Source: an uncultured Gemmatimonadaceae bacterium (lineage in GTDB: Bacteria; Gemmatimonadota; Gemmatimonadetes; Gemmatimonadales; Gemmatimonadaceae). From it: DNA of 64,000 bases. A program made the position numbers and the translations under genes. This document shows, piece by piece, positions 6,130 through 27,798 of this stretch. Each line of letters opens with the position of its first letter. Positions within the stretch are counted from its first letter, which is position 1. The DNA is taken from NCBI GenBank assembly GCA_963822945.1, contig CAWGJO010000026.1, positions 1 through 64,000 on the forward strand. The letters are read 5' to 3'. The notes under the pieces were generated by a model. That model had not been told where the DNA came from, did not search any database, and saw only the letters and a list, made by a program, of their open reading frames with translations.

Positions 6130-6132
6130 GGC

Positions 6133-9186: not shown

Positions 9187-10025
9187 CCCTCGCCCTCGAA
9201 TGCGGGGGCGCGCTTGCCGAAGAACGCACTCAGCCCCTCCGCGAAGTCGTGGCCGTCGGCGGAGCGCGCCAGGTGCTGCAGTTCCTCGTCCAGGTGGTAG
9301 TCGAGTTGCTCCACGCCCGCGGCCTGGTTGATGAGGCGCTTGGCCACGGCGTATGCCGCCGTGGGGCCGGCGGCGAGACGCTGGGCCACGGCCATCACAT
9401 CGGCCGCGAAGGTGTCGCGCGGGAATACGTCGTTGACGAGGCGCATGTCCTTGGCTTCGGCCGCCGACAGGCGCGGGTTGAGCAGTACGAGCCCCATTGC
9501 CATGCGCAGGCCCAGCAGCCGGGGCAGGAAGAAGGTGGAGCTCTCGGCTCCCGTGAGCCCCGTCTTGTGGTAGGCCCATTCGAACGTGGCGTCGTCCGAG
9601 GCGAACACGAGGTCGCAGGCCATGGCGATGCCGAACCCGCCCGCCGCCGCCACGCCGTCCACCGCGGCGATGAACGGCTTGGGGGCGCGCTTGATCTCCG
9701 AGATCGTGCTGTGCAGGTACTCGAGAATCTCCTTGAATCCCTCGCCGAATCCCGGGGGTTCGGCCGTTCCCTCGGGGCGGAGGTATCCGAAGTCCTCCTG
9801 CGAACCCTGGGCCCGGATGTACTTGAGGTCGGCGCCGCTGCAGAAGATGCCGTTGGTGCCGCGCACGATCACGCAGCGCACCTCCTTGTCGCGCGCCAGC
9901 TGCAGGCCGGCCTTCCGGAAGTCGCGGGCCGTTTCCACGTCCATGGAGTTGAAGCGCGCAGGGCGATCGATCACCAACTGCCCCACGGCCCCGTCGCGTT
10001 CGATGTGGATGTGTTCCATGGCCAT
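9183..10025 (-). CDS. Enoyl-CoA hydratase/isomerase (crotonase) family protein, possibly HypX C-domain-like
   Basis: IDRPARFNSM, FCSGADL, PKPFIAAVDGVAAAGG, AYHKTGLTGAESSTFFLPRLLG, DFAEGLSAFFGKRAPAF; starts 11 bp after hypE. Confidence 0.9.
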   Translation of the reverse strand: MAMEHIHIERDGAVGQLVIDRPARFNSMDVETARDFRKAGLQLARDKEVRCVIVRGTNGIFCSGADLKYIRAQGSQEDFGYLRPEGTAEPPGFGEGFKEILEYLHSTISEIKRAPKPFIAAVDGVAAAGGFGIAMACDLVFASDDATFEWAYHKTGLTGAESSTFFLPRLLGLRMAMGLVLLNPRLSAAEAKDMRLVNDVFPRDTFAADVMAVAQRLAAGPTAAYAVAKRLINQAAGVEQLDYHLDEELQHLARSADGHDFAEGLSAFFGKRAPAFEGEG

Positions 10026-10036
10026 GGCGGCTGCCC

Positions 10037-11110
10037 TCAGCAGATGCGCGGCAGCAGTTCGCCCTCGTACTCCGAGAGCAGCCGCTTGCCGAGCCCGGTG
10101 TCGAGCACCACGTCGCCGGGCCGCGTCGCCACGCACTCGCCGATCAGTGTCGCGTGCTCGCCGTGCGGATGCCGGCGCAGCGCCTCGAGCACGGCCTCCA
10201 CGGTCGCGTCGTCGCCGCGCACGCCGAGCACGGCCTTGCCCTCGTTGGCCACGTGCAGGGGATCCAGTCCCAGCATCTCGGCGGCCGCGGCCACCACCGG
10301 ATTCACCGGCACGTCCGCCTCGCGAACCAGGATGCCGACGTGCGCCTTCTCCGCCATCTCGTGCAGCGCGCTGGAGAGGCCGCCGCGCGTGGGGTCCTTC
10401 ATCGCCACCACGGCGCCGGGCCGCGCACGGAGCGCGTCGCGGATCATGTGGTTGAGCGGCGCGACGTCGGACTTCAGTTCGGCGTCGATCTGCAGCCGGT
10501 GGCGGTGCACCATGAGCGCCATGCCGTGGTCGCCCACGTTGCCGGTGACGATGATCCGGTCGCCCACCTGCAGCCCGGAATCGCGCACGATGGAGTCGGC
10601 CATCGCCACGCCCGTGGTATTGATGACCACGCCGTCCAACTCCCCGCGTCCCATCACCTTCGTGTCACCCGTGACCACGGTGGTCCCCGCTTCGCGGCAG
10701 GTGTCGAACATCGACTGCTGCACGCGTTCCAGGTCGGGGAAGGTGAATCCCTCCTCGACGATCAGCGCGCAGGTGAGCCCCATCGGCTCGGTGGCGCCCA
10801 TCATCGCCAGGTCGTTCACGGTGCCGGCAATCGCCAGCCGGCCGATGTCGCCGCCGGGGAAGAACGCCGGCTGCACCACGTGCGAGTCGGTGGTGACGAT
10901 CAGCCACCGGTCGCCCACGCGGAGCGCCGCGCCGTCGTCCATGGCCGCGATGCCGAAGCCGTCCACTTCCACGTCCACGAACCCGCGGGTGAGCGTCTCC
11001 TGGATCAGGCGGCGCATGGCGCGGCCCCCCGCGCCGTGCTTCATCACGATCGTCGGATCGCGGCGGCCGGAATGGAGGCGAACGGCCTCCTCGTTGATCG
11101 TGGTGGTCAT
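10037..11110 (-). CDS. hypE: Hydrogenase maturation carbamoyl dehydratase HypE
   Basis: HGAGG, TTDSHVV.P.FFPGGDIG, NDLAMMGA, GDTKV, DPTRGG, ANEG, C-terminal PRIC. Confidence 0.95.
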   Translation of the reverse strand: MTTTINEEAVRLHSGRRDPTIVMKHGAGGRAMRRLIQETLTRGFVDVEVDGFGIAAMDDGAALRVGDRWLIVTTDSHVVQPAFFPGGDIGRLAIAGTVNDLAMMGATEPMGLTCALIVEEGFTFPDLERVQQSMFDTCREAGTTVVTGDTKVMGRGELDGVVINTTGVAMADSIVRDSGLQVGDRIIVTGNVGDHGMALMVHRHRLQIDAELKSDVAPLNHMIRDALRARPGAVVAMKDPTRGGLSSALHEMAEKAHVGILVREADVPVNPVVAAAAEMLGLDPLHVANEGKAVLGVRGDDATVEAVLEALRRHPHGEHATLIGECVATRPGDVVLDTGLGKRLLSEYEGELLPRIC

Positions 11111-12255
11111 AGCTTCGGGTGCCCTCCGTACTGGTGCCAGATGCGGCAGGTGCCCTCGCTGCTCACCATGCAGGCGCCCACCGGCGCGTCGGGCACGCAC
11201 TCCTTGCCGAACAGCGTGCACTTCTCGGGAGACGAGATGCCGGCCATGATGTCGCCGCAGATGCAGAGTTGCGTGAGCGCGGCGGGCGCCTGCGTCCAGA
11301 GGCGCTTGAGGTCGATGGTGAAGTGCCGGCGCGCGTCGAACCGCGCGAACTCGTCGCGCAGGCGCAGGTTCCCGTTGGGCACGTGCGCGATGCCGCGCCA
11401 GTTGCCGCCCGTGGTGCGGAACACGCGCCAGAGCTGCTCCTGCGCCACGCGGTTGCCTTCCTTCGTCACGCAGCGCGGGAAGGCGTTCACCACTTCGTGG
11501 CGGTCGTCGCGAATGAGTTCCACGAGCTGGGCCAGTCCGGCGAGGATGTCCAGCGGCTCGAACCCGGCGACGACCACGGGAATCCCGTGCCGCTCCACGA
11601 ACCGCTCGAAGATTCCCCAGCCGGTGATCGTGGCCGCGTGTCCGGCGGCGAGAAAGCCCTCGATACGCGTATCCGGCATCTCGGCCACGATCTCCATGAC
11701 CGGCGGGATGTACTTGTGCGCCGAGAGCACGAAGAAGTTCGGCGGTGGATCCGCCACGAGGATGGCGGCGGTCGCCACGGCCGTGGTCTCGAATCCGCTG
11801 GCGAAGAACACCACAGGCTCGTTGGTGTCGCGCGCGATCTCCACCGCCTGCGCCGCGCTGTACACCACGTCCACGTTCGCGCCCATCGACTGCGTCTCGG
11901 CCAGCGAGCGCACCGTGCCGGGCACGCGCAGCATGTCGCCGTACGTCACCACCCGCACGCCGTCCTCGGCCAGCACCACGGCCTCGTCCACCTCGGGCAG
12001 GTCGGTCACGCACACCGGACACCCCGGGCCCATGATCACGTCCAACGCCGCTGGAAAGGTTTGCCGGAGGCCGAACTTGGCGATCGCCTGTTCGTGGCTG
12101 CCGCACACGTGCATCACGGTCACCGGGGCGCGGCCGATCTGGTCGCACATCTGTCCGATGGCAGCGGCCAGTTCGTGGGCGCGGGCTGGATCGCGGAACT
12201 TGAGTTCGTCGGCCCCTTTGGGACGGGCGACGCCGGCCCCGACGCCCTCAGGCAT
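11107..12255 (-). CDS. hypD: Hydrogenase maturation protein HypD
   Basis: VCGSH, GPGCPVC, GFETT, VAGFEPLD and C-terminal Fe-S Cys with CMVSSEGTC. Confidence 0.95.
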   Translation of the reverse strand: MPEGVGAGVARPKGADELKFRDPARAHELAAAIGQMCDQIGRAPVTVMHVCGSHEQAIAKFGLRQTFPAALDVIMGPGCPVCVTDLPEVDEAVVLAEDGVRVVTYGDMLRVPGTVRSLAETQSMGANVDVVYSAAQAVEIARDTNEPVVFFASGFETTAVATAAILVADPPPNFFVLSAHKYIPPVMEIVAEMPDTRIEGFLAAGHAATITGWGIFERFVERHGIPVVVAGFEPLDILAGLAQLVELIRDDRHEVVNAFPRCVTKEGNRVAQEQLWRVFRTTGGNWRGIAHVPNGNLRLRDEFARFDARRHFTIDLKRLWTQAPAALTQLCICGDIMAGISSPEKCTLFGKECVPDAPVGACMVSSEGTCRIWHQYGGHPKL

Positions 12256-12569
12256 CGGGGACGCCCCGCGCCGGCGCTGTGGGGTCCGAGGCCGAGGCGC
12301 GCGTGGCGTCGATCTCGCCGCGCACGTCGGCCGCCATCATGTCGTTCTCCGCTTCCCGCAGCAGCAGATCGTAGAGGGCGAGCGTCTCCTCGATCTCGTC
12401 ACTCGGGAATGCGCCGGATGGCGAAGCCCACGTGGTTGAGGATGTAGTCACCCGGCGCCACGGGCTCGTCGATGATGTCGAGCCGCGTCTCACGCCGCAC
12501 GCCGAAGAAGTCCACCTGCGCGATCTGGCCGTTGACCTCGAGAATGCGGCCGGGAACTCCGAGACACAT
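12248..12569 (-). CDS. hypC: Hydrogenase maturation chaperone HypC (one extra base near 12402)
   Basis: GGAGGAG RBS; MCLGVPGRILEV...DFFGVRRE...GDYILNHVGFAI continues after a +1 indel as DEIEETLALY; not recovered intact by the ORF track. Confidence 0.9.
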
Positions 12570-12911: not shown

Positions 12912-14366
12912 ATGGATATGAAAGTCACGATGAATCCGGTTCTGGGACGGTTGACCGCGCTGTTGATCGGAGCGACGGTCGCTGCTTCCTGCACCAGCGA
13001 CAAGATCGTCTATCAGAGCAAACCGAATTTCACGGCGCCGCCCGCGGCCGCCGCGAATTTCGTCGGATACTCCGATACGGTCACCAAGCAGACGGTCTGC
13101 GGTAACTGTCACGTCGACCAGCAGGCCAAGTGGTCGACCACCAAGCACGCCACGGCGTGGGCGGATCTCCAGGCGAGCGGCCACGCCGGCGCCTCCTGCG
13201 AACCCTGCCACACGGTGAATTCCAACGGCAACGCGTCCACCGATACCCTGTCCGGCTTCCTCGCGACCCGGGACGCCCGCTACGAGGACGTCCAGTGCGA
13301 GAGCTGTCACGGCCCGGGCCTCGTGCACGTAACGGCGCCCGGACTCAGCAACCGCCCACTGGCGTCGATCGCCGTCGACACCGGCGCCGCCTTCGGCGAC
13401 GGCTGCGGCGAGTGCCACACCGGCACGCACAACCCGTTCGTGGATGAGTGGGTTCAGACGAAGGGTGCCGGACATGCGCACCTCGAGGCGCATGCGCTCG
13501 GCAACGCGGCTTGCACGAACTGCCATGTCGGCCAGGACGCGCTCGTCGCCTGGGGCGTGAACACCAACTACAAGGAAGCGAGCGAGGAAGCCACGAATCC
13601 AATGGCCATCACCTGCGCGGTCTGCCACGATCCGCACGGTGGGCCGAACACGGCCCAGCTCCGCTATCCCATCGACGTGGCCGATACGTCGGGCAACCTC
13701 TGCATGCGCTGCCACCAGCGTAACGGCAAGCCCGTGGCCCCGGCGAGCAAGTATGCGCCGATGGCTCCCGAAGGCCCCGTCCTGCTCGGCTACGCCGGCT
13801 ACTTCCCGGCCGGCTACACCGGTCCCGACACGATCCTCGGTACGCACGGTTCGTCGGCCAACGCGAAGCTCTGCGTCACCTGCCACATGGGCAAGATGAC
13901 GGTGAACGACTCGGCCGGGGCGTTCGTCACCAGCTACACAGGACACAACTTTGCCGCGGCGCCATGCCTCGACGCCAACGGCGTGCCCACCACCGGCTCC
14001 TGCGACGTGTCGCAGCGGTCGTTCTCGGCCTGCGCGGCGAGCGGCTGCCATGGCACGCCGAGCGCAGCCCGGTCGGCCTTCGTCGCCGTCTCCAGCCGGC
14101 TGGCGCTTCTGGATTCGGCGCTCAACAGCCAGCTGGTCCAGATTCCGGACTCGGTGTACCAGAGCACCACGATGAACTCGGCCATCGGCGCCAAGTTCAA
14201 CCTGCAACTGGCCGAGAAGGCCGGCAGCGAGGTGCACAACCCGTTCCTGATGGAAACGCTGCTGACCAGCAGCATCAGCCAGATCCAGACGGACTACGGG
14301 ATCGCGCCGAAGATCAGCGTGAACCTCGCGAACATTCTTCCGCAGACAGCGGCCAACTACCGCTGA
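12912..14366 (+). CDS. Multiheme c-type cytochrome lipoprotein 1 (8 CxxCH + 1 Cx4CH)
   Basis: Lipobox VAASC; CGNCH, CEPCH, CESCH, CGECH, CTNCH, CAVCH, CMRCH, CVTCH, CAASGCH; c554-like N-terminal part; C-terminal VHNP helix region. Confidence 0.92.
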   Translation: MDMKVTMNPVLGRLTALLIGATVAASCTSDKIVYQSKPNFTAPPAAAANFVGYSDTVTKQTVCGNCHVDQQAKWSTTKHATAWADLQASGHAGASCEPCHTVNSNGNASTDTLSGFLATRDARYEDVQCESCHGPGLVHVTAPGLSNRPLASIAVDTGAAFGDGCGECHTGTHNPFVDEWVQTKGAGHAHLEAHALGNAACTNCHVGQDALVAWGVNTNYKEASEEATNPMAITCAVCHDPHGGPNTAQLRYPIDVADTSGNLCMRCHQRNGKPVAPASKYAPMAPEGPVLLGYAGYFPAGYTGPDTILGTHGSSANAKLCVTCHMGKMTVNDSAGAFVTSYTGHNFAAAPCLDANGVPTTGSCDVSQRSFSACAASGCHGTPSAARSAFVAVSSRLALLDSALNSQLVQIPDSVYQSTTMNSAIGAKFNLQLAEKAGSEVHNPFLMETLLTSSISQIQTDYGIAPKISVNLANILPQTAANYR

Positions 14367-14382
14367 GTAGTGGGGATGGGCG

Positions 14383-14428
14383 GTCGGCAGGGGGCGGAAC
14401 CGGGGTTCTGGTTCCGTCCCCTGTCGAC
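14383..14428 (+). terminator. Stem-loop downstream of cytochrome 1
   Basis: GTCGGCAGGGGGCGGAACC...GGTTCCGTCCCCTGTCGAC inverted repeat followed by GTTT. Confidence 0.55.
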
Positions 14429-14667
14429 GTTTGCGGAGGGTATCGGGTCGTACCCCGAGGGTACCCACGGGCTGGTGCACACGTTAAACACATGACAGGA
14501 CCGTCCGACAATCCCGTACAAAACTCCGGCAACCGCTGACGGTTCCCCCCGGTCCGGAGGCCCACATTCCACCTCGCAGGCAAACGTGAGAACAACAATC
14601 GAAGTCGAGCAGCAGTAGAAGGAGTTTCACGGTTCGAGCCCCACGCCCCCCACGGAGTGCGGAGAAC

Positions 14668-16119
14668 ATGAAAATGAGAGTTCCCAGAAGTCCGGTGCTG
14701 GGGCGGCTGACCGCAGTCTTGATCGCAGCGGTAGTCGCCTCATCGTGTACCAGCGAGAAGATCGTCTACCGGAGCGAACCGAGTTTCACGGCGCCGCCAG
14801 CGGCGGCCGGAGACTTCGTTGGGTACGCGGACACGGCCAGCAAGCAGACCGTGTGTGGTAATTGTCACGTGGACAAGCAGCTTCAGTGGGCCACGACGAA
14901 GCACGCATCGGCGTGGGCCGACCTGCAGGCCAGCGGTCACGCCGGTGCCTCCTGCGAGCCCTGTCACACGATCAGCAAGAACGGCAACGCAGTGACCGTG
15001 GACGACGTGGGCTATACGGCAACGCACGACGCGCGGTACGAAGACGTGCAGTGCGAGAGCTGCCATGGCCCAGGTCTGGCGCACGTCACGTCCCCGGCAC
15101 TGGGGAACCGTCCGCTGGCGTCGATCGCGGTCGACACCGGCGCGGCGTTCGGCGACGGCTGCGGCGAATGCCACAGCGGCACCCATGAGCCGTTCGTCGA
15201 CGAATGGAAGCAGTCGCTGCACGGTGCCATGAACTCGCACGCCATGGGCAACGCCAGCTGCCAGCCCTGCCACACGGCGCAGGGTGCGCTGGCCGCGTTC
15301 AACGTCAACACGGCCTACCTGGAAAAGGATCAGGTGGCGACCAACCCGCTGCCCATCGTCTGCGCGGTGTGCCACGATCCGCACGGCAGCGACAACCCCG
15401 CGCAGCTTCGGTTCCCCATCAACTCGATCGATCCGAACCAGAACCTGTGCATGAAGTGCCACCAGCGGAACGCGACGTACGATCCGTCCAACACGCACGG
15501 TCCGCACTCGCCGGAAGGCCCGCTCCTCATCGGAGAGGCTGGATGGTGGCCGCCGGGCACGCAACTCAATCTGCCCGACACGATCGTCGCCACGCACGGG
15601 ACGACTCGGAATCCGGGGCTGTGCGTCACCTGCCACGTGAACCGGTTCACCGTGACCGATCCGAACACCGGCAACTTTGCCTTCCAGGCAACCGGCCACC
15701 TGTTCGTCGCCATTCCGTGTCTCGACGCGAACGGGCTGCCCACGGTGGACAACACGTGTGACATCTCGCAGCGGTCGTTCAGCGCCTGTACGGCGAGCGG
15801 CTGCCACGGGAGTGGTTCCGTAGCCCAGTCGGCCCTGACGGCCACGCGTGGACGCCTCGCGCTGCTCGATTCGACGCTCGCGGGCCAACTCGCCCAGGTG
15901 GATCCGGCCGAGCTGGCGGTGAGCACCACGCTCACGACGGCCAAGGGCGCGCAGTTCAATCTGCAACTCGCCGAGGAGCCGGGGTCGGTGGTACACAACC
16001 CATTCCTCATCGAGGCGCTGCTGACGGCGAGCATCAACCAGATGCAGAAGGACTATGGTATCGCGCCGCAGGTTGGCGTCAACCTCAACAACATCCTGCC
16101 CACGATGTTCAAGAAGTGA
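14668..16119 (+). CDS. Multiheme c-type cytochrome lipoprotein 2 (paralog; 8 CxxCH + 1 Cx4CH)
   Basis: Lipobox VASSC; CGNCH, CEPCH, CESCH, CGECH, CQPCH, CAVCH, CMKCH, CVTCH, CTASGCH; colinear with 12912..14366. Confidence 0.92.
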   Translation: MKMRVPRSPVLGRLTAVLIAAVVASSCTSEKIVYRSEPSFTAPPAAAGDFVGYADTASKQTVCGNCHVDKQLQWATTKHASAWADLQASGHAGASCEPCHTISKNGNAVTVDDVGYTATHDARYEDVQCESCHGPGLAHVTSPALGNRPLASIAVDTGAAFGDGCGECHSGTHEPFVDEWKQSLHGAMNSHAMGNASCQPCHTAQGALAAFNVNTAYLEKDQVATNPLPIVCAVCHDPHGSDNPAQLRFPINSIDPNQNLCMKCHQRNATYDPSNTHGPHSPEGPLLIGEAGWWPPGTQLNLPDTIVATHGTTRNPGLCVTCHVNRFTVTDPNTGNFAFQATGHLFVAIPCLDANGLPTVDNTCDISQRSFSACTASGCHGSGSVAQSALTATRGRLALLDSTLAGQLAQVDPAELAVSTTLTTAKGAQFNLQLAEEPGSVVHNPFLIEALLTASINQMQKDYGIAPQVGVNLNNILPTMFKK

Positions 16120-16156
16120 TCGGGATGTCGATGGAAGACCTGCAGTAGAACCACTC

Positions 16157-16219
16157 GGTGCGGGCCGGGGACGAACACCTTCCCGGCCCGCACCAGCACC
16201 GGGCCCCATGGCCCGGTGC
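16157..16219 (+). other. Two consecutive GC-rich stem-loops between cytochrome 2 and the porin gene
   Basis: GGTGCGGGCCGGG...CCCGGCCCGCACC and GCACCGGGCC..GGCCCGGTGC; no U-tract. Confidence 0.45.
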
Positions 16220-16315
16220 CGAAGACTCTGAACCGCTGACGCAGTACCGGAGGCGACGATGATCGGGGGCGATCGAGCACACGACGCCATGCTCCATAGA
16301 TCCGTACGGCAGCAG

Positions 16316-17815
16316 ATGTCCCATCGGGGCCGCGGCGTGACGTCGACGGCCCTCGCGCTCGTCGTGCTGGCGTTTTCCACATCGTCCCTGCGCGCGCAGG
16401 GCTACGTCATTCAGGGATCCAGCTTCGCGCAGTTTCTCGACATGCGCCCCCTGGTGACCGACAGCGTCCCCTTCGCCGCCACGGATTCCGTCTCGACCCT
16501 CTTCCGGCGGACGCCGAGCGGCGTGATCACCACCTGCACGACGGGCGATCCGTACTGTTATTTCGTGCGGTCCGCTCCGCGTGCCAACCTCACGGCGCTC
16601 ATGCAGGACGTGGACGTCACGGCGTGGGGACTGCGCCCGGGCCTGAGCGTGCACGCGCAACTGCGCGCCCGCACGGCCGGGGGGGACGCGCGCAGCCTCT
16701 GGCCGCAGGCCAATCAGCATTTCGACGTGCTCGCCGCCTATGCCGAATACGAACGCTCGCCCGTGCTGGCGCGCCTCGGCCGGCAGTGGGTCACGTCGGC
16801 GCTCGGCGTCTTCAACTTCGACGGGGCTTCGGTGACCGTGCGCCCCATCCCGATGCTCGGGCTCAGCGCCTACGGCGGCGGAACGCTCATCCAGGGGCTC
16901 GACCGCCCGCTCGGCGCCGCGGCGCTCTCGCCGGTGGAGGACATCCCGCCCGTGGACAAGTCGTTCCTCGTCGGGGGCACGATGCAGTTCCGGCCCAACG
17001 CAAACGGCGCGGTGCAGGTCCAGTACCAGCGCGAGATCCGCAACGACCGCGGCGCGCTCTACTCCGAGCGGATGGCCGCGACGGCGGAGTTTCGCGCTCG
17101 GTACGCGTCGTTCGGCGGCGAGGCCACCCGCGATCTCGCCACGGAGACGTTCAACGATCTCGGCGCGCACGTCGCGTTCAATCCCTGGCACCGCATCGGC
17201 ACGCGCCTCGAGTACCGGCACTACTCCCCGTATTTCGATCTGTGGACCATCTGGGGGGCCTTCTCCCCCGTGGGCTACAACGAGTTCACCGGGACCATGA
17301 ACTGGGCCACGCCGGGGACGCGGCTCGCACTCGGCCTGTCGGGCGGATACCGCAAGTACGCCGACACCTACACCGGGGTCGCATCGCTGCCGCTCCGGAC
17401 CAGCGGATGGCGCGTCGGCGCCACCGGGTCGCTGCGCGCCACCAACACCTGGACGGTGCAGGGCAGCTACGACATGGACATCAACTTCGGCGCATCGAGC
17501 ACCGATGGCGACGTCGCGATTCGCTGGCAGCCCAGCGACCGCGGCTCGCTGGCGGTGCACGGCACCGCCTTCCAGAACATCTACGAGTTCACCGTGGGCG
17601 AGGGACGCGTCGTCGGCGCCGGCCTGCAGGGGGACTACCGGCTCACGCCCGACCTGCGGCTGGTGGGCGACGCCACGCTCTATCGCCACACCGGCCGGAA
17701 CGAGCCCGATCTGGCCGACTGGAACCAACGGCGCGCCAGCCTCCGGCTCGAATGGCGGGTGGGCGGCGAACCCGGGAGCGGCAACTGGACCGTGGGTCCG
17801 GTGAGGCGGCCATGA
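16316..17815 (+). CDS. Putative outer-membrane beta-barrel (porin of a porin-cytochrome complex)
   Basis: Signal peptide ending LRA-Q; many amphipathic aromatic-ended strands (ARLGRQW, FDGASVTV, LQGDYRL, LRLEWRV); lies between multiheme genes, stop overlaps the next ATG. Confidence 0.75.
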   Translation: MSHRGRGVTSTALALVVLAFSTSSLRAQGYVIQGSSFAQFLDMRPLVTDSVPFAATDSVSTLFRRTPSGVITTCTTGDPYCYFVRSAPRANLTALMQDVDVTAWGLRPGLSVHAQLRARTAGGDARSLWPQANQHFDVLAAYAEYERSPVLARLGRQWVTSALGVFNFDGASVTVRPIPMLGLSAYGGGTLIQGLDRPLGAAALSPVEDIPPVDKSFLVGGTMQFRPNANGAVQVQYQREIRNDRGALYSERMAATAEFRARYASFGGEATRDLATETFNDLGAHVAFNPWHRIGTRLEYRHYSPYFDLWTIWGAFSPVGYNEFTGTMNWATPGTRLALGLSGGYRKYADTYTGVASLPLRTSGWRVGATGSLRATNTWTVQGSYDMDINFGASSTDGDVAIRWQPSDRGSLAVHGTAFQNIYEFTVGEGRVVGAGLQGDYRLTPDLRLVGDATLYRHTGRNEPDLADWNQRRASLRLEWRVGGEPGSGNWTVGPVRRP

Positions 17816-19332
17816 AGATCAGACACCTGCTCATCCCGCTCGTGCTCGCGGTGGCCACCGCGACGCTGGGCACCCAGCAGCCCCGCGGCGCATTCCCGCA
17901 CGCGCGGCATGCCAAGCTCTTTCCCACGTGCGCCGGCTGTCACGCCGGAATCCTCGACGGCGACTCGTCGCGCATGTTCCCCACCGCCGAGGCCTGCGCG
18001 CAGTGCCACAACGGGACCGACGTGCGGCGGGTGGCGTGGACCGGCCACGTGGAGAAGGCCACCAATCTCAAATTCTCGCACACCGAACACGAGATGATGT
18101 CGGCGCAGGGCGGGTCCCCCGCCCAGTGCGTGAATTGCCATGGCCAGCAGGCCGGCCGCGACACCGCGTGGATGCACGTCGCCGGCGCCAATCCCGCCGC
18201 GTGCATCACCTGCCACCGCCACCAGGCGAGCGAACACCTGGCGCCCACGGCGGATTGCGCCACCTGTCACAAGACGCTGGTGCAGGCCACGAGCCTGTCG
18301 GCGGGCGACATCGCCGCGTTCCCGAAGCCGGCCTCGCACAGCGATCCGAACTGGCTGTCCACCCACGCGCCGAAGAACGACGCGCAGGTGGCCCAGTGCG
18401 CCATCTGCCACGCCCGCGAGAGCTGCGAGCGGTGCCACGTGAACGCCGATCAGGTGCCGGCCATCGCGGCGCTCGGGCGTGACACCCGCGTGGCGGCGCT
18501 GGAGCGCGAGATGAAGCCGGCGTACTTCACGCCGGCTTCGCACAAGGCATTCGACTGGGAGTACACGCACGGGCCGTCGGCGCGCACGGAGACGCAGACC
18601 TGCGCCACCTGTCACGCGCGCACGAGCTGCACGACCTGTCACATCGGTACCGCTGGCCAGGACGTGATCAGGAAGCTGCCGGTGCCCGCACCCGGCCGGA
18701 CCCAGGGGGTGCTGCTGGTGCATGCCGCGTCGGTGTCCATCGTGCGGCCCAACCCGACCGCCGGCACGGCGGCGGGGAGCGGCCTGGTGCTGCTGGCGAC
18801 GGCGCGCGATACCGTGCGGTCGACCGCGGTGCACGTCCACCCCGATGGCTTCGCCACCAACCACAAGGACGTCGCGGCCAGTGGACAGCTCAACTGTCAG
18901 GGCTGCCACCAGCCGCGCGACTGCACGGCCTGCCACGACGGCGTTTCGCCCCGGGGCGGCTACCACCCCGCGGACTTCATGTCCCGGCACGCCACGGGCG
19001 CCTACGCGCAGGAGCAGAACTGCAGCAGCTGCCACCGCGTGGAGACCTTCTGCCGCTCATGCCACGAGAAGTCGGGCATCGCCAAAACGGGCGGCGTGCG
19101 AGGCACGGCGCATACGGCGCAGCCGCTCTGGCTGCTGCAGCACGGGCAGGCGGCGCGGCAGGGGCTGTCCTCGTGCACCGCATGCCACCAGCAGCGCGAC
19201 TGCCTGCGCTGCCACTCGAGCCTGGGCCTGCACGTCAACCCGCACGGGCCCGACTTCAATGCGGAGGCCATGGGGTCGCGCAATATGCAGATGTGCCTGG
19301 TGTGCCACCTGACCAATCCGCTGAAGAAGTGA
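17812..19332 (+). CDS. Secreted 16-heme c-type cytochrome
   Basis: ATG at 17812; signal peptide MKIRHLLIPLVLAVATA; 16 CxxCH counted; c3/c7-like FxHxxH motifs. Confidence 0.92.
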   Translation: MKIRHLLIPLVLAVATATLGTQQPRGAFPHARHAKLFPTCAGCHAGILDGDSSRMFPTAEACAQCHNGTDVRRVAWTGHVEKATNLKFSHTEHEMMSAQGGSPAQCVNCHGQQAGRDTAWMHVAGANPAACITCHRHQASEHLAPTADCATCHKTLVQATSLSAGDIAAFPKPASHSDPNWLSTHAPKNDAQVAQCAICHARESCERCHVNADQVPAIAALGRDTRVAALEREMKPAYFTPASHKAFDWEYTHGPSARTETQTCATCHARTSCTTCHIGTAGQDVIRKLPVPAPGRTQGVLLVHAASVSIVRPNPTAGTAAGSGLVLLATARDTVRSTAVHVHPDGFATNHKDVAASGQLNCQGCHQPRDCTACHDGVSPRGGYHPADFMSRHATGAYAQEQNCSSCHRVETFCRSCHEKSGIAKTGGVRGTAHTAQPLWLLQHGQAARQGLSSCTACHQQRDCLRCHSSLGLHVNPHGPDFNAEAMGSRNMQMCLVCHLTNPLKK

Positions 19333-19337
19333 ACGAC

Positions 19338-19440
19338 TGCTGACCACCGCTGACGGCTGACTGCTGAAGGCTGACCCCTGACCGCTGACGAGCCCGAAGC
19401 AGCCAGCGGTCAGGCCTCAGCCGTCAGCCGTCAGTGGTCG
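19338..19440. repeat. CTGAC/GTCAG short-unit inverted repeat cluster
   Basis: Several (G)CTGAC units followed by GTCAG units; CCTGACCGCTG pairs with CAGCGGTCAGG. Confidence 0.6.
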
Positions 19441-19458
19441 GTACTCACTCGTCCGTGG

Positions 19459-19537
19459 CCGAAACGACACCGGGACGCCTCTCGATGGAAGGAGAAGCGT
19501 CCCGGCGTCGTTTCGGTTGACCGTTGACCGTTGACCG
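19459..19537. terminator. Long hairpin between convergent genes, followed by (TTGACCG)x3
   Basis: CCGAAACGACACCGGGACGC...GCGTCCCGGCGTCGTTTCGG (19459-19516); heptamer tandem 19517-19537. Confidence 0.6.
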
Positions 19538-19611: not shown

Positions 19612-20058
19612 CTACTTCTTCATCGCGGCCTTCGTTGTGCCGGCCGCGTGCATCTCCTGCAGTGCGCTGTCGGTCAGCATCTGCGTATTCGGGCCCTGGC
19701 GCCGCTTGATCTCGGCGCTGGCGCTGTCCGCCAACGGCTTGTTGCCGAGCTTCTCGGCCGCCATGTAGATGCCGAAGAAGGGCGCCGCGTTCAACGGCGC
19801 GAGATCCGACGCCTGGCGGTAGCTCTTCAGCGCCGCATCGTACTTGCCGGCCCGGTACTGGGCGTTTCCGCTGTCCAGCGCCGCGCGGGCATCGGGGGAC
19901 ATCGAGGTGTGCGGGTTGGCCGTGCTGTCACCGGCCGCCATGGCACCGAGCGGCGTCTTGGCCGGCTGCTGGGACTGCTTGCATGCGCCCGCGGCGAGGA
20001 GCGCCGGGAGCGCGAGGAGAGCAATGGCGCGGGTGGCGCCACGAGAAATCTCGGACAT
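19612..20058 (-). CDS. TPR-containing lipoprotein
   Basis: Lipobox AAGAC; GNAQYRAGKYDAALKSYRQASDLAP TPR motif. Confidence 0.7.
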   Translation of the reverse strand: MSEISRGATRAIALLALPALLAAGACKQSQQPAKTPLGAMAAGDSTANPHTSMSPDARAALDSGNAQYRAGKYDAALKSYRQASDLAPLNAAPFFGIYMAAEKLGNKPLADSASAEIKRRQGPNTQMLTDSALQEMHAAGTTKAAMKK

Positions 20059-20341: not shown

Positions 20342-21486
20342 ATGCTCACGCCAACCACGCACGCGTGGTCAGACGATGAAGCGCTGGGCGGATATCTCGG
20401 CCGCCGCGGCATCAGCCGGCGAGACTTCATCGAATTCTGTGGACAGATGGCCGCTGTCCTCGGACTCAGCAGCCTGGCGGTGCCGAGAATCGCCGAGGCC
20501 ATGGAAGCGCTCAAGCGCCCCAGCGTCATCTGGCTGCAGTTGCAGGAATGCACGGGTTGTGTCGAGAGTGTCATCCGCACGTCGGATCCGACCATCGGTG
20601 ACCTCGTCCTCGACGTGATCTCGCTGGACTTCATGGATACGCTCATGGCGGCGGCGGGCACCCACGCCGAAGAGGCGCTCGACACGGCCCGCAAGCAGAA
20701 CGCCGGCAAGTACATCCTGATCGTCACCGGGTCGGTGCCGACGAACGAGAACGGCATCTACACGATGATCGGTGGCCGCACCGCGCGGCAGCTGCTCGAG
20801 GAAACGGCGAAGGATGCGGCGGCGGTGATCGCCGTGGGCGCCTGTGCCCACTGGGGCAGCGTCCAGGCCTCGAAGCCGAATCCCACGGGCGCCGTGGGCG
20901 TTTCGGAAATCGTGAAGGACAAGCCCGTGCTCAACATCGCCGGGTGCCCCCCGATCGCCGACGTCATCACGGCCACCGTGGTGCACTTTCTCACCTTCGG
21001 GCGCCTGCCCGAGACCGATGGCGACGGACGGCCCCTGTTCGCGTACGGCAAGCGGATTCACGACCAGTGCCCGCGGCGGGCGCACTACGACGCCGGCCAG
21101 TTCGTGCGCGCGTTCGACGACGCCGGCGCCCGCGAGGGCTGGTGCCTGTACGAGGTGGGGTGCAAGGGTCCGGCGACGTTCTCGCCGTGCCCGATCTTCA
21201 TGTGGAACTCCCATACCGATTTTCCAATCGGTGCCGGCCATCCCTGCATCGGCTGCACCGAGCGGAACTTCTGGGATTCGATGTCGCCGTTCTACCACCG
21301 CCTGCCCAACGTGGCCGGCGTCGGGGTGGAGCACACGGCGGACATCCTCGGGGCCGCGCTGGCGGTAGGCGCGGCGGCCGGCGTTGCCGCGCATGCGGCG
21401 GCGACGGGCATCTATCAGATCCGTTCGCGGCGCGCCGAGTCGGCGCGCCGACCAGAAGTCGAGCGCAACCGGCCGGGAGGACAGCC

Positions 21487-21508
<22 letters not shown>
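20342..21508 (+). CDS. hyaA: Group 1 membrane-bound [NiFe]-hydrogenase small subunit
   Basis: Tat motif SRRDFIEF; ECTGC, GAC, GCPP, HDQCPRR, WCLYEVGCKGP, HPCIGC; C-terminal TM anchor with His; last residues may be frameshifted (22-bp overlap with the large subunit). Confidence 0.93.
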
Positions 21509-23198
<1,690 letters not shown>

Positions 23199-23202
<4 letters not shown>

Positions 23203-23975
23203 CCCCTCTCGATTCCAAACATGCGCGCGGCTCGCCCTGGCCGTCGATCGACGAACGGGCCGGGGCCATGACGCGCGAGCCGGTCATCCAGCGCGGTGGC
23301 CGGTCGGAGCACTGGGTCTACCTGTGGCACTGGCCCATCCGCGCCATGCACTGGACGGCGGCCGTCTGCATCGTCGTCCTGGTCGTGACCGGGTTCTGGA
23401 TCGGCCGGCCGTATTTCATGACGGGTGGGGCGAGCCAGACCTTCGGCCTGCAGTACGTGCGCCTCGTGCACTTCATCGCCGCCGGCGTGCTCGTCGCCAC
23501 GGCCATCGTCCGCATCTACTGGCTGTTCGCCGGCGATCGCTTCGAACGGCTGCCGGCGCTGTTCCCGGTGCGGAAGAGCGATTGGGTGAATCTGTGGAAG
23601 ATGGTCAAGTTCTACCTGCTCGTGCATCCGGAGCGCGCGCCCCGTTATCTGGGGCACAATCCGCTGCAGCAGTTGTCGTACACGTTCACGTATCTGATGG
23701 CCGCGCTGCTGGCCGTGACCGGATTCATCATGTTCGGCGAGGCGAACCCGCAGGGGCTCATCATGCACACCTTCGGACAGCTCGCGCCCATGCTGGGCGG
23801 GTTTCAGTGGGTGCGCGTGATCCATCACGTGGCCGCCTGGTACTTCCCCATCTTCATCATCCTTCACGTGTATCTCGCCATCCGCGCCGACCTGCTGGAG
23901 CGGAGCGGCGCGATCTCGTCGATCATCAGCGGCGGCCGGTTCGTGGCCACCGACGAGCACTATGCCGACGAGTGA
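23199..23975 (+). CDS. hyaC: [NiFe]-hydrogenase b-type cytochrome subunit
   Basis: WPIRAMHW, VRLVHF, GHNPLQQLSY, RVIHH, ILHVY; start may be 23268. Confidence 0.9.
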
Positions 23976-24501
23976 GCGGCGTTCGGGCGATGTCGTCGTC
24001 GGATTGGGCAACCCGATCATGGGCGACGACGGCATCGGCCTGGCCGCGCTCGAACGCCTGCGCGAGGAGTGGGAGATCCCGGCGGCCGTCGAGCTGGTTG
24101 ACGGCGGCACGTGGGGCATGACCCTGCTTCCGCTGCTCGAAAGCGCGGAGCGCGTACTCTTTCTCGACGCCATCCGCACCGGGCGCCCCGTGGGAACCCC
24201 CGTGGTCCTCGTGGGTCAGGAGATCCCCCGGCAGGCGGCCCTCAAGATTTCGCAACACCAGATTGATCTGCGCGAGGTGCTCGCGGTGGCCGAGTTCCGC
24301 GGCACGCTGCCCCCAGACATGGTGGCCGTCGGCCTCGAGCCGGCCACGTTCGAACTCGGCGACCCGATGACACCGGCGGTGCTCGACAACATCGACCGCG
24401 TGGTGGAGATGGCGGTCGACCAGCTGCGGGCATGGGGGCACGAGTGCCGAAAGCGCGCTGCCGTCGGCCCGCTGCTCACGGCTGCCGGCCCCGGGTGGTA
24501 G
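23962..24501 (+). CDS. hyaD: Hydrogenase maturation endopeptidase
   Basis: GLGNPIMGDDGIG, VDGGT, FLDAI, SQHQ. Confidence 0.92.
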   Translation: MPTSERRSGDVVVGLGNPIMGDDGIGLAALERLREEWEIPAAVELVDGGTWGMTLLPLLESAERVLFLDAIRTGRPVGTPVVLVGQEIPRQAALKISQHQIDLREVLAVAEFRGTLPPDMVAVGLEPATFELGDPMTPAVLDNIDRVVEMAVDQLRAWGHECRKRAAVGPLLTAAGPGW

Positions 24502-24504
24502 CTC

Positions 24505-24753
24505 ATGCACGAAATGTCCGTCGCCATGGAGATCTGCCGCATCGTGGACCAGAAGTACGACCGCGAGGCCGGGACGCTGGTGACGGTCGGTGTCGAGGTC
24601 GGCGACGACGCGGGGCTCGAACTCGGCAACCTGGAATTCTGTCTGGAGGCGCTGCTCTCGCAGCCGCCGTTCACCGGCGCCAAACCGCACTTCGACCGCA
24701 AGCCCGGCGACGTGCTGCGCGTCAGCTACCTGGAGTTGGACGATGGCCATTAG
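24505..24753 (+). CDS. hypA: HypA-like nickel chaperone lacking the zinc domain (82 aa)
   Basis: MHEMS Ni motif, VEVG...LEFCLE and C-terminal G..LRVSYLEL; no CxxC pairs. Confidence 0.85.
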   Translation: MHEMSVAMEICRIVDQKYDREAGTLVTVGVEVGDDAGLELGNLEFCLEALLSQPPFTGAKPHFDRKPGDVLRVSYLELDDGH

Positions 24754-25447
24754 AACGATCGACGTCCGCGAACGCGTCATGGAGAGGAACGACGTCATTG
24801 CCCGTGACATCCGCGCCCGGCTCGACGCCAGCGGCGTGGCGGCGCTCAACCTCGTCTCGTCGCCCGGCTCCGGGAAGACGCTGCTGCTCGAACGCACGCT
24901 CGACGCGCTCGGCGACGAGCTGCGCATGGCCGTCATCACCGGCGACGTGCAGACGCAGAACGACGCCGAGCGACTGGCCCGCCACACCACGCGCCTGGTG
25001 CAGGCCGTGGTCACCGGGGGCGCGTGCCATCTCGATGCGCGGCAGATCGACAACGGCCTCGAGGCCGTGGATCTGGACGACACCGACCTCGTGTTCATCG
25101 AGAACGTCGGCAACCTCGTCTGTCCGGCGTCGTGGTATCTGGGCGAGGACGCGAAGGTGGTGGTGTTCTCGGTGACCGAGGGCGAGGACAAGCCGCTCAA
25201 GTATCCCAAGATGTTCCGCGAGGCCCGGTACGCGGTGTTGAACAAGGTGGATCTCCTGCCGTACGTTCCGTTCGACGTGGACCAGGCCGTCGAGTGCGCG
25301 CGGCGGGTGAATCCGGAGTTGGAGTTCTTCTTCACGTCGGCCACCACGGGCAGCGGTCTCGACACCTGGTTCGATTTCATCCGGCGGGTCGCACGATCCG
25401 GCCGAGCGCCGGCGAGCGCGCCGGTGGCGGCGCGCGCTCAGGCATGA
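24743..25447 (+). CDS. hypB: Hydrogenase nickel-insertion GTPase HypB
   Basis: SSPGSGKT, ACHLDA, ENVGNLVCPA, EGEDKPLKYP, NKVDL. Confidence 0.95.
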   Translation: MAIRTIDVRERVMERNDVIARDIRARLDASGVAALNLVSSPGSGKTLLLERTLDALGDELRMAVITGDVQTQNDAERLARHTTRLVQAVVTGGACHLDARQIDNGLEAVDLDDTDLVFIENVGNLVCPASWYLGEDAKVVVFSVTEGEDKPLKYPKMFREARYAVLNKVDLLPYVPFDVDQAVECARRVNPELEFFFTSATTGSGLDTWFDFIRRVARSGRAPASAPVAARAQA

Positions 25448-27798
25448 ACCGAACGATCGAGGCGCAGCGGGCGGAGCCGGGGGCCGGGCAGTCGACGGAC
25501 GGGCTCCGCCTTCGCGTTGCCGGGGTGGTGCAGGGGGTGGGCTTCCGCCCCTTCGTGCACCGGATGGCGGTTCGGCACGGCCTGCGGGGATGGGTGCGCA
25601 ACACTACGGGCGACGTCGAGATCGCCGTGGCGGGCGAACCGTGGGAACTGGAGCGCTTCGTCCGCGCCCTGAGCGCCGAAGCGCCGCCGCTGGCGCGCAT
25701 CGACCGCGTGGAGCGCGAAGTCCTGCACGGCGCGATCCTCGGGCCCTTCCGGATCGTCGAGAGCGACGGCAGCGGCGAGGAGGGGCAGTGGGTGTCGCCC
25801 GACGTCGCCATCTGCCCGGCGTGCGAGGCCGAACTCTTCGACCCGCTGGACCGCCGGTACCGGTATCCCTTCATCACCTGCACCAATTGCGGCCCGCGTT
25901 ACTCGGTGATCGAGCGCATGCCGTACGATCGCGAGCGGACCAGCATGCGCCGGTTCGAACAGTGCCCGGCGTGCGACCGCGAGTACGCGAGCATCGGCGA
26001 CCGGCGCTATCACTCGGAGACCAACAGCTGCCCGGTCTGCGGGCCCCGGCTTGCCTACCTCGACCGCCGCGGCCGCCCGGTGGATGCCGAGGACCCCATC
26101 GCGTCGGCGGCCGCGGCGCTGCGGGGAGGCGGCATCGTGGCCGTGCGCGGCATGGGCGGATTCCACCTCGCCTGCGATGCCACCGCCGAATCCGTGGTCG
26201 TGCGCCTGCGGCGCGGCAAGCACCGCGACGGCAAGCCGCTCGCCGTGATGGTGCGGTCGCTCGCCGACGCCCGCCGACTCGCCATGATCGGCGATCGGGA
26301 GGCCGAGTGGCTGGAGCGTCCCGCGCGGCCCATCGTCGTGGTCGAGGCCCGCGAGGGTTCGCCCGTGGCGCCGTCGGTGTCCGGAGGGCTCGCCACCATC
26401 GGGCTCATGCTCGCCTACACGCCGGTGCACCTGCTGCTCCTCCAAGCCGTGGGGCGCCCGTTGGTGATGACCAGCGGAAACCACACCGGCGAGCCCCTGG
26501 CCGCGTCGCTCCACGAGGCGCTCCGCGATCTGGCGGACGTGGCGGGGTCGTACCTCACGCACGATCGCGAAATCGTGGCGCGGATCGACGACTCGGTGGT
26601 GCGGGTGGTGCCGGGGCCGGGCCGTCAGTCCGACGCACCGGCGGCGCCCGCCATCCTCATGCGGCGCGCCCGCGGCCTCGCGCCGCTGCCGGTGGCCCTG
26701 CCCGTGGCCGCGCCGGAGCCGCTGGTCGGCGTGGGACCGCATCTCAAGAACACCTTCACCCTCGCCACGGGGCGGGACGCGTACGTGAGTCCCCACATCG
26801 GCGACCTCGAGACGCTCGACACCGCCGACCACTGGCGCGCCACGTACGACGCGTTCCGCCACCTGTTCCGCGTCACGCCGTCCGTGGTGGCGCGCGACCT
26901 GCATCCCCAGTACCTGTCCACGCGCCTGGCCGCGGAACTCGGCATCGACCGGGTGATCGCGGTGCAGCACCATCACGCCCACATCGCCGCCGTCGCCGGT
27001 GAGCACGGCGTTGCCGAGCCCGTGATCGGCGTGGCGTTCGACGGGACGGGGTACGGCGACGACGGGCACACCTGGGGCGCCGAGATCCTCGTGGCCGATC
27101 TCGCCGGGTACCGGCGCGTGGCCCAGCTCCGGTACGCGCCGCTGCCCGGCGGCGACGTGGCGGCCCGTTCGCCCTGGCGTGTGGCGTTGGGGTACCGCTC
27201 GCTCGCGCCGGAGCACGCCGACGCCTTCTCCCTCGCCCATCGCGGCGTCGATCCACGCGCCGTCCGGCTGGTGGAGCAACAGATGGCCGCCGCCGTGAAC
27301 ACGCCGCTGGCCTCCTCCATGGGCCGGCTGTTCGATGCGGCCGCGGCCGTGCTCGGGGTCTGCCGCGAGTCGCACTTCGAGGGAGAGGCGGCGATGCGGC
27401 TCGAGGCACGGGCCGCCCACCACGAAGCCGGTCCCCTCCCGTACGAGGCCGTCGCCGGCGAGGGGGGGCGCCACCACTTCGATCCCATCCCGCTGCTGGC
27501 CGCGCTGGGCCGCCGCGCGCTCGGGGGCGAGGATGTAGGGCGCCTGGCGGCGGTATTTCACGAGAGCGTCGCAGACGGCACAGCGGCCTTCGTCGGCTCG
27601 TTGGCGGCCCGGGAGGGTATCACCCGGGTGGCCCTGGGCGGGGGCGTGTTCCAGAACGCCCGCCTGCTGGCCTCGCTGGCCCGGAGGCTCGAAGCCCGGG
27701 GCCTGCAGGTGCTCACGGCCGGGGTGCTGCCGCCCAACGACGGGGCCGTGAGCTACGGGCAGGCGGTGGTGGCCGCGGCGCAGCTCGCGCGGCGCTGA
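25444..27798 (+). CDS. hypF: Carbamoyltransferase HypF
   Basis: GVVQGVGFRP acylphosphatase domain, zinc fingers (CPAC, CTNCGPR, CPVCGP), QHHHAH, FDGTGYG, PPNDGAVSYGQ. Confidence 0.95.
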   Translation: MNRTIEAQRAEPGAGQSTDGLRLRVAGVVQGVGFRPFVHRMAVRHGLRGWVRNTTGDVEIAVAGEPWELERFVRALSAEAPPLARIDRVEREVLHGAILGPFRIVESDGSGEEGQWVSPDVAICPACEAELFDPLDRRYRYPFITCTNCGPRYSVIERMPYDRERTSMRRFEQCPACDREYASIGDRRYHSETNSCPVCGPRLAYLDRRGRPVDAEDPIASAAAALRGGGIVAVRGMGGFHLACDATAESVVVRLRRGKHRDGKPLAVMVRSLADARRLAMIGDREAEWLERPARPIVVVEAREGSPVAPSVSGGLATIGLMLAYTPVHLLLLQAVGRPLVMTSGNHTGEPLAASLHEALRDLADVAGSYLTHDREIVARIDDSVVRVVPGPGRQSDAPAAPAILMRRARGLAPLPVALPVAAPEPLVGVGPHLKNTFTLATGRDAYVSPHIGDLETLDTADHWRATYDAFRHLFRVTPSVVARDLHPQYLSTRLAAELGIDRVIAVQHHHAHIAAVAGEHGVAEPVIGVAFDGTGYGDDGHTWGAEILVADLAGYRRVAQLRYAPLPGGDVAARSPWRVALGYRSLAPEHADAFSLAHRGVDPRAVRLVEQQMAAAVNTPLASSMGRLFDAAAAVLGVCRESHFEGEAAMRLEARAAHHEAGPLPYEAVAGEGGRHHFDPIPLLAALGRRALGGEDVGRLAAVFHESVADGTAAFVGSLAAREGITRVALGGGVFQNARLLASLARRLEARGLQVLTAGVLPPNDGAVSYGQAVVAAAQLARR

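Follow-up and report, generated by a model that had tools for sequence, protein, structure and literature searches.

Why should genes for multiheme cytochromes and a beta-barrel protein stand in the middle of a hydrogenase locus? The question is raised by positions 12,912 to 19,332 of a 64,000-nucleotide stretch (the window, meaning the whole stretch that was analysed) from an uncultured Gemmatimonadaceae bacterium (assembly GCA_963822945.1, contig CAWGJO010000026.1). The window is the start of that contig, called C26 below; the genome is 88% complete and the homologues are named Gemmatimonadaceae. Four plus-strand genes, for two nine-heme lipoproteins, a beta-barrel and a secreted 16-heme cytochrome, sit here between the divergent minus-strand hypCDE genes and the plus-strand hyaABCD-hypABF genes, and their heme motifs add up to 34 (9+9+16). 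A first-pass annotation had described this layout, and we confirmed its motif counts, the placement between the hydrogenase genes and the translational coupling of the 16-heme gene, whose start overlaps the barrel stop (ATGA); it had missed a small TPR gene, which separates the 16-heme gene from hyaA and often accompanies the conduit in relatives. The conduit is real, conserved and unannotated, and its association with the hydrogenase is strong but one-way. We give slightly better than an even chance to the reading that the four genes form an outward-facing porin-cytochrome conduit, which would take its electrons from menaquinol, partly supplied by the hydrogenase, and pass them to extracellular acceptors.

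The barrel, its 16-heme partner and the lipoproteins

A barrel of about 500 residues had been proposed at first pass. The protein has 499 residues, no heme motif and no Pfam or NCBIfam match, and 63 divergent members of its family gave only scattered generic porin matches in Pfam and NCBIfam family scans. An AlphaFold2 model built on 108 sequences (pLDDT 83.9) is a plugless barrel of 22 strands whose loops are long on one side, with turns of 2-5 residues on the other. In fold comparisons it aligned best with the barrel of TonB receptors, their plug left out (Z 18.4), and MtrB reached Z 15.7. The fold class is clear from the model and no specific relative is named by it; fold searches, which return any 18-26-strand barrel, show neither kinship nor its absence. 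By sequence, the barrel found no PDB match at E 10, although 6r2q was among the PDB sequences searched, and none of the 63 family members matched MtrB_PioB (Pfam, NCBIfam, E 0.1). A profile search over 1.84 billion representatives gave 517 matches at E 0.001. A scan of genomes with TIGR03509, in which no control gave a signal, was uninformative on the barrel.

The barrel gene is followed directly by the 16-heme gene in all 75 loci with downstream room (79 loci examined), and this pairing is therefore not chance. When the two proteins were folded together the median complex score was 0.71, against 0.00 for the best of three controls; the mark that we used for such scores, and which the pair passed, is reached by 116 of 157 solved pairs and by 2 of 215 mismatched pairs. 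The runs share at least 78% of their contacts, with a pLDDT of at least 72 for the partner. Confident contacts involve mature residues 324-477 of the cytochrome, which hold hemes 10-16, and touch 20 of the 22 strands; 70 barrel residues of the interface lie in long loops and none in short turns. The last seven hemes are thus predicted to fill the barrel lumen. Because the interface lies in the long loops, and given the usual topology of barrels, the C-terminus is predicted at the outer mouth and the nine N-terminal hemes in the periplasm. Contacts are tightest between an invariant barrel loop (residues 278-292) and residues 428-440 of the cytochrome, two of the best conserved stretches; the loop is predicted to hold the 16-heme protein at the outer mouth, close to hemes 14-15. 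The earlier suggestion that this barrel can house a cytochrome holds up, on the open barrel of the model and on the controlled complex prediction.

A sister family gives independent support for this placement. A barrel and 13-heme pair on contig C21 (L053:8965-11750; C21:272967-275750) is homologous to the pair of the window and led us to 51 metagenome loci (L150-L200), whose cytochrome clusters are named Polyangiaceae or Myxococcales where they are named. The sister barrel aligns with the window barrel at a homology probability of 99.5% (19% identity, 384 columns), and the sister cytochrome matches in the final 161 residues, which form the predicted lumen segment (99.96% probability, 38% identity). 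The family thus conserves the barrel and exactly the seven-heme segment predicted to lie inside it. Its existence also disproves a strict restriction of the conduit to one phylum, a restriction that our GTDB scan, made with Gemmatimonadota-derived patterns and covering the best 79 of 336 confirmed stretches, cannot show in any case. The C21 pair and an MtrC-like gene on the same contig were considered as partners belonging to the organism itself and rejected, since that half of the contig is compositionally foreign. The tetranucleotide composition of C21 shifts after about 120 kb, the contig also carries an OmcA/MtrC-like decaheme gene (L054:7945-10794, below cut-off), and it is probably chimeric or holds a large foreign insert.

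Each lipoprotein has eight CxxCH motifs, one CX4CH and no CxxCK. The lipobox cysteine is residue 27 in each and is kept in 109 of 110 homologues (signal peptides were called by eye). The copies are 64% identical, the duplication spans the upstream ribosome-binding region, and by their sequences they are a tandem duplicate. Profile searches placed OmhA first (E 3.6e-16) and OcwA next (2.2e-12), with HAO weak. The AlphaFold2 model of copy 2 (pLDDT 89.2) scored Z 18.0 with OcwA, 17.1 with OmhA and 14.6 with NrfA, the OcwA alignment covering 331 residues at rmsd 3.2 and 24% identity. It has the nine-heme c554+NrfA-type fold with a C-terminal three-helix bundle that is shared by OcwA of Thermincola potens (6i5b), with the same nine hemes, and OmhA of Carboxydothermus ferrireducens (6qvm). 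OcwA is described as a nine-heme terminal reductase of the cell surface with open hemes 2 and 5 under His-His motifs (bioRxiv 641308; this citation, like those to PMC and bioRxiv numbers below, stands for part of the text). From their fold the lipoproteins are therefore predicted to be outer-surface reductases, modelled closest to OcwA and OmhA and not to NrfA or HAO, and the possibility raised at first pass that they might be inner-membrane enzymes was not borne out. They differ from both models in belonging to a diderm, beside a porin, in the CX4CH motif of heme 9, and, by alignment, in the reduction of the His-His pairs to one His, or to Met in one copy.

In the alignment with OmhA the first His of each OcwA pair is kept and the second is mostly lost; the structural model contains no hemes. 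The copies differ at the position that aligns with the heme-5 pocket, which is Met in copy 1 and His in copy 2. We compared this position in 35 loci: His occurs in all 24 single-copy loci, while nine of the 11 two-copy loci combine a His copy with a Met copy, one has two Met copies and one, from a distant family, two His copies. This pattern suggests that the two copies are subfunctionalised. They are probably tuned differently, perhaps in redox potential. Some loci vary in other ways: L149 carries two conduits head to head, L067 has extra cytochromes inside the operon, and L070 has two lipoproteins of nine CxxCH motifs with a split 16-heme gene.

Relationship to known conduits

Judged by sequence, the conduit is not MtrCAB: it would work like MtrCAB but fails every test of Mtr membership. 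With MtrCAB (PDB 6r2q), MtoAB and PioAB, and with CymA, it shares a cytochrome in an open barrel, a lipoprotein on top and a quinol dehydrogenase of the NapC family. The window barrel is smaller, however, the terminal cytochrome has a NrfA/HAO-type fold, and there is no membership in the MtrB/PioB, MtrA/DmsE or MtrC families. The 16-heme protein does not match TIGR03508, the lipoproteins reach 40-42 bits where the cut-off of that model is 192, and no match to TIGR03507 was found, so that the remark in the first-pass annotation that these proteins do not look like decaheme MtrA or MtrC stands. NrfA itself differs from the lipoproteins, which have neither its CxxCK catalytic heme nor a match to PF02335.

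A close likeness in organisation is to the Pcc conduits of Geobacter (OmbB-OmaB-OmcB), where a porin gene of 18-22 strands is followed by that of a periplasmic cytochrome and OmcB-type proteins have an atypical CXnCH motif (PMC4245776); here the model has 22 strands, and the lipoproteins, predicted to reach the outer membrane, have CX4CH and a lipobox. The Pcc periplasmic cytochrome has 5-14 hemes (PMC4245776), against 16 in the window, 18 in some relatives and 13 in the Polyangiaceae form, and the window system usually comes with an in-operon NapC/NrfH-like 20-heme protein and a conserved hydrogenase linkage. Searches of the PDB, NCBIfam and plasmids (tblastn) yielded no OmbB or OmaB model, structure or sequence, so Pcc was compared by description. 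A remote relationship is plausible by analogy, because the two-gene Polyangiaceae form resembles the two-gene Pcc layout of Anaeromyxobacter (PMC4245776). OmhA has been reported as weakly similar to OmcB (PMC7829351), and small cytochromes resembling the lumen segment cluster in Myxococcota, Thermodesulfobacteriota and Ignavibacteriota, which we take as a lead only. The covered part of the Pcc survey mentions no gemmatimonad (PMC4245776). The claim of a distinct conduit family, made at first pass, is thus good with respect to Mtr and to PCC3, and with respect to Geobacter-type Pcc the system may be a remote branch.

PCC3 shares the combination of a porin with very heme-rich cytochromes and has a different barrel and inner-membrane protein (PMC5566968). 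The window locus lacks the five-helix membrane protein of PCC3, and the combination of porin, ~21-heme cytochrome and membrane protein does not occur there. A second, unrelated porin-cytochrome cluster with a PCC3-like layout was found on contig C27 (L052:6252-13944), comprising a barrel-like protein of 543 aa, cytochromes with 21 and 23 hemes, a membrane protein of 295 aa and a gene resembling those of ferredoxin/flavin reductases. Its label rests on layout, and its barrel has no detectable homology with that of the window (hhalign probability 5.7%). The EET1-4 clusters of peat Acidobacteriota and Verrucomicrobiota are also sequence-divergent porin and multiheme sets, some of them OcwA-like, and are expressed in situ (bioRxiv 10.64898/2026.05.27.727921). 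By their description they differ in phylum (the string 'gemmat' has 0 occurrences in the covered text), in having cytochromes of 8-13 hemes, and in having no physical hydrogenase linkage in that text.

No description of the conduit was found in the literature searched, which comprised main texts and left most subscription journals outside its coverage; supplements, for instance Fig. 6/Table S2 of PMC13264449, could list Gemmatimonadota clusters. The covered parts of PMC13264449, PMC6295460, PMC5566968, PMC7829351, PMC9671151, PMC10367259, PMC11492766, PMC9769843, PMC7914226, PMC9426454, PMC12307469, PMC5037454, bioRxiv 641308 and the peat preprint on EET1-4 do not describe it. Multiheme proteins have been noted in Gemmatimonadota metagenome-assembled genomes (PMC9769843), and the main text of a 326-genome survey of Gemmatimonadota energy metabolism, as far as covered, has no word beginning with 'iron' or 'extracellular' (PMC9426454).

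Hydrogenase, quinol pool and the direction of electron flow

The hydrogenase has a small subunit exported by the twin-arginine (Tat) route with a C-terminal anchor, a large subunit and a cytochrome b, as in group 1. Its best PDB match is 3myr, which we take to be the Allochromatium enzyme of class 1e, and the two extra cysteines of O2-tolerant enzymes, part of the six-cysteine proximal cluster of 1d, are absent at the positions taken for them. The subgroup may be 1d, 1e or 1f. In 401 Gemmatimonadota genomes drawn across the phylum we found the barrel in 182 and the hydrogenase in 109 (E 1e-40); 105 genomes have both, 77 the barrel only and 4 the hydrogenase only. Within one family (f2) all 75 hydrogenase genomes have the barrel, compared with 118 of the 166 f2 genomes as a whole. 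As controls, the barrel occurs in 20 of 34 genomes with nrfA and in 117 of 163 with nosZ (78 of 90 in f2). Barrel coordinates are listed for 142 of the 182 barrel genomes. Both positions are known for 85 genomes, of which 39 have them on different contigs, which is uninformative, 40 within 30 kb and 6 far apart. Hence 40 of 46 same-contig pairs lie within 30 kb, compared with 1 of 14 for nosZ, whose pairs were hand-picked from the listed rows. The linkage persists over at least six gene orders in several families, in one of them back to back about 5.2 kb apart. On a fair view, a hydrogenase is almost always accompanied by the conduit, whereas the conduit is not bound to the hydrogenase in the same way. 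Of the coupling proposed at first pass, the conserved adjacency has therefore stood, while the hydrogenase has turned out to be optional.

The inner-membrane link, which the first-pass annotation had left unexplained, now has candidates, in the operon in most relatives and on the adjoining contig here. A third cytochrome gene stands between lipoprotein and barrel in most relatives: among 61 loci with enough sequence upstream, 44 show a NapC/NrfH-type or related multiheme gene immediately before the barrel gene, the entry for L107 being a manual correction. In its full form this protein combines a NrfH/NapC-type start with two transmembrane helices and some 20 hemes (scores below curated cut-offs). 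Only a short form of 9-10 hemes is present in L048, L049, L109, L111, L119, L120 and L135, visibly without the NapC-like start in L049. The genus of the window has two lipoproteins instead of the ~20-heme gene. Contig C22 carries a module in which an 11-heme protein with a helix at its C-terminus is joined by an FdnI-type cytochrome b, a 14-heme protein and a 22-heme protein whose NapC/NirT match exceeds the Pfam cut-off, together with a bc-type cytochrome b and its 9-heme partner; we take the pair of 11-heme protein and cytochrome b to resemble a split CbcL. Because two relatives join these contigs, the end of C22 to the beginning of C26, in one case across a 4.5-kb gap, this module would lie about 29 kb upstream of the barrel. 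Such a module lies 29-32 kb from the barrel in three relatives of the genus; a fourth has it inserted after the 16-heme gene and before hyaA; in a fifth, module, barrel and hydrogenase were all not found. In other lineages, parts of an alternative quinol module are carried by 6 of 7 loci without the 20-heme gene (in the same slot in L134) and by 4 of 43 loci with it. From this distribution the two look interchangeable, as expected of a quinol-oxidising input. One CbcL-type and two ImcH homologues are listed for Gemmatimonadetes (PMC6295460).

Taken together, these data make the following path the most likely. HyaAB, classed by family matches, would oxidise H2 on the periplasmic side and HyaC would reduce menaquinone, which is established chemistry for this class of enzyme. 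Menaquinol would be re-oxidised by the 22-heme NapC/NrfH-like protein and the 11-heme/cytochrome b pair upstream, or in most relatives by the in-operon ~20-heme protein. The nine N-terminal hemes of the 16-heme protein would accept the electrons in the periplasm, and the last seven are predicted to lead them through the barrel to the outward C-terminus, where the two OcwA/OmhA-like lipoproteins may act as surface-bound terminal reductases of Fe/Mn oxides, humic quinones and the like. We infer direction, surface exposure and acceptor. Hydrogen would be one donor among others, because it is the quinone pool that does the coupling and the hydrogenase is missing from many genomes with the conduit. 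The genome has genes for cytochrome c assembly and futalosine menaquinone synthesis, and a secretin is present on contig C45. Since oxidases are present, and RuBisCO, nrfA and nosZ were not found in the 88%-complete genome, the organism fits a facultative heterotroph that would turn to the wire in the absence of O2. The locus is covered by contigs from relatives in four metatranscriptomes of three studies (88% likeness); those of run X1 reach 30 of 30 bins. This coverage is weak evidence and no proof of co-expression, as the contigs come from relatives, there was no silent control stretch and depth cannot rank the genes.

Several points weigh against this path. For every member the conduit is known from sequence and models. 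The complex was folded without hemes and with custom alignments, and likeness to the solved Mtr complex could have raised its score. The counted genomes are kin and not independent, hydrogenase genes occur in only 15 of 32 loci with full flanks, and the 77 barrel genomes without a hydrogenase match and the 6 distant pairs of the 46 have to be accounted for. Enrichment is also seen for nosZ, which lies within 90 kb of the barrel in 10 of 14 pairs, so there is some general clustering of respiratory genes. An aa3-type and a second heme-copper oxidase in the genome provide an O2 sink for the electrons of H2. Perhaps, then, the conduit is real and its hydrogenase link is no more than co-regulation in an island for anoxic or micro-oxic respiration, with the hydrogenase mainly feeding oxidases or protecting from O2 and organics feeding the conduit; the hydrogenase-free genomes, the nosZ distribution and the oxidases would all suit this. 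So would an assignment of the hydrogenase to group 1f, to which it may belong. The HydDB entry for that group reads 'unresolved, may reduce reactive oxygen species' (PMC5037454). We nevertheless consider co-regulation alone unlikely: the nesting of the hydrogenase within barrel genomes is near complete, which is not so for nrfA or nosZ, and the close linkage has been kept through all the gene orders mentioned above, including the back-to-back one.

The outward placement of the lipoproteins is a prediction. OcwA also reduces nitrite and hydroxylamine (bioRxiv 641308), and the 51 Polyangiaceae loci, many of them short, gave no lipoprotein or hydrogenase match. The lipoproteins might be periplasm-facing reductases of the NrfA/HAO superfamily, acting on nitrite, hydroxylamine or sulfur oxyanions and fed, as in NrfHA, by the NrfH-like ~20-heme protein, with barrel and 16-heme protein as a separate two-part wire. 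Their NrfA-type fold (Z 13-14.6), a partner gene with an NrfH/NapC domain, the one His kept of each open-site pair and the bare sister loci are in favour of such a role. It is made quite unlikely by the missing CxxCK, by best matches that are two surface iron reductases, by a lipoprotein gene upstream of the barrel in 51 of 61 loci, and by the retention, even duplication, of that gene where the NrfH-like gene has been lost. Residue +2 of the lipoproteins is T/V and not Asp, which also argues against it, the Asp sorting rule being a rule of E. coli that may not apply to this bacterium. A further alternative, which we regard as improbable, keeps the conduit and turns it inward: electrons would enter from Fe(II), partner cells or reduced humics and end at O2, at N2O or in H2 evolution by the hydrogenase. 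Porin-cytochrome wires are reversible, as established for Mtr/Mto, the quinol cluster includes a bc-type cytochrome b module, oxidases are present and many relatives have nosZ; against this, a HyaC-type hydrogenase is normally an H2 consumer, and RuBisCO was not found in the 88%-complete genome. An extracellular reductase-type lipoprotein is moreover typical of reducers, whereas the conduits of oxidisers often have none (PMC4245776, PMC5566968).

Returning to the outward conduit, the same gene set is present in many members of the phylum, and its Gemmatimonadota carriers can therefore likely respire solids outside the cell, probably with hydrogen as a donor. A bolder proposal, which we offer tentatively and rate somewhat short of an even chance, is that about half of the Gemmatimonadota carry an undescribed, self-contained quinol-to-surface wire of its own family (OcwA-type surface reductase, 22-strand barrel, 16-heme core and 20-heme NapC-like bridge) and keep the uptake hydrogenase chiefly to feed it, so that an abundant soil and sediment phylum would be a major group, so far unrecognised, of mineral and humic reducers fuelled by H2; in the genus of the window the terminal reductase would have split into a His form and a Met form, suited to acceptors that differ in potential. 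Should the conduit work as modelled, a common phylum of soils and sediments would be a competitor for H2 and a reducer of Fe/Mn oxides or humics, which would bear on metal cycling and on the suppression of methane. None of the Pfam and NCBIfam models tested captures the barrel, and as a test system the locus offers a barrel-cytochrome pair whose interface is predicted, an OcwA of a diderm and His/Met paralogues of natural origin.

Features of the locus and its surroundings

Features of the conduit and hydrogenase locus, in window positions.
Feature	Position	Strand	Basis
hypE and hypD, hydrogenase maturation, divergent from the conduit	10037..12255	-	HypD Pfam 412 bits; hypE from sequence, position and 87-94% conservation in the genus
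hypC, split over two frames in the assembly	12248..12569	-	N- and C-terminal parts in different frames
9-heme OcwA/OmhA-fold lipoprotein, copy 1, 484 aa, Met284 at the variable heme-pocket position	12912..14366	+	
9-heme OcwA/OmhA-fold lipoprotein, copy 2, 483 aa, His280 at the variable heme-pocket position	14668..16119	+	AlphaFold2 model, fold match
Predicted outer-membrane beta-barrel gene, 499 aa, 22 predicted strands, no plug, no named family	16316..17815	+	
Most conserved barrel loop, mature residues 278-292	17228..17272	+	Invariant columns; lowest-error contacts in the complex model
Secreted 16-heme cytochrome, 506 aa, translationally coupled to the barrel	17812..19332	+	16 CxxCH
C-terminal seven-heme segment, predicted lumen filler	18844..19305	+	Complex model; part common to the Polyangiaceae sister cytochrome
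Small TPR lipoprotein-like gene	19612..20058	-	TPR matches below curated cut-off; neighbourhoods
hyaA, hyaB, hyaC (cytochrome b), membrane-bound group 1 uptake [NiFe] hydrogenase	20342..23975	+	TIGR00391, TIGR01409, TIGR02125 over cut-off; PF00374
hyaD protease, hypA, hypB, hypF	23962..27798	+	HycI Pfam for hyaD; others from sequence and position

A promoter and terminator scan of the locus gave results at chance level. Two strong hairpins, with arms of 41 and 25 nt, lie at 19346-19516 between the converging 16-heme and TPR genes and are likely terminators or repeat elements. The reading of hypC in two frames is probably due to an indel in the assembly; frameshifts occur also in the upstream operon (275-8615), which we take to encode a V/A-type ATPase, and in the bc-type cytochrome b (L051:14574-15850), and their sharing suggests indel errors in the assembly. 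An enoyl-CoA hydratase gene (9183-10025) follows hypE and keeps this position in conduit-bearing relatives of the genus. Elsewhere in the genome, a TIGR04190 B12-binding radical SAM gene (over cut-off; L051:9441-11195) lies between the two quinol-module operons of C22, and contigs C9 and C24 (L055, L056) carry two alternative clusters that are presumably complex III-like, one of them beside presumably rnf-like genes, with NrfD/DsrP-type matches.

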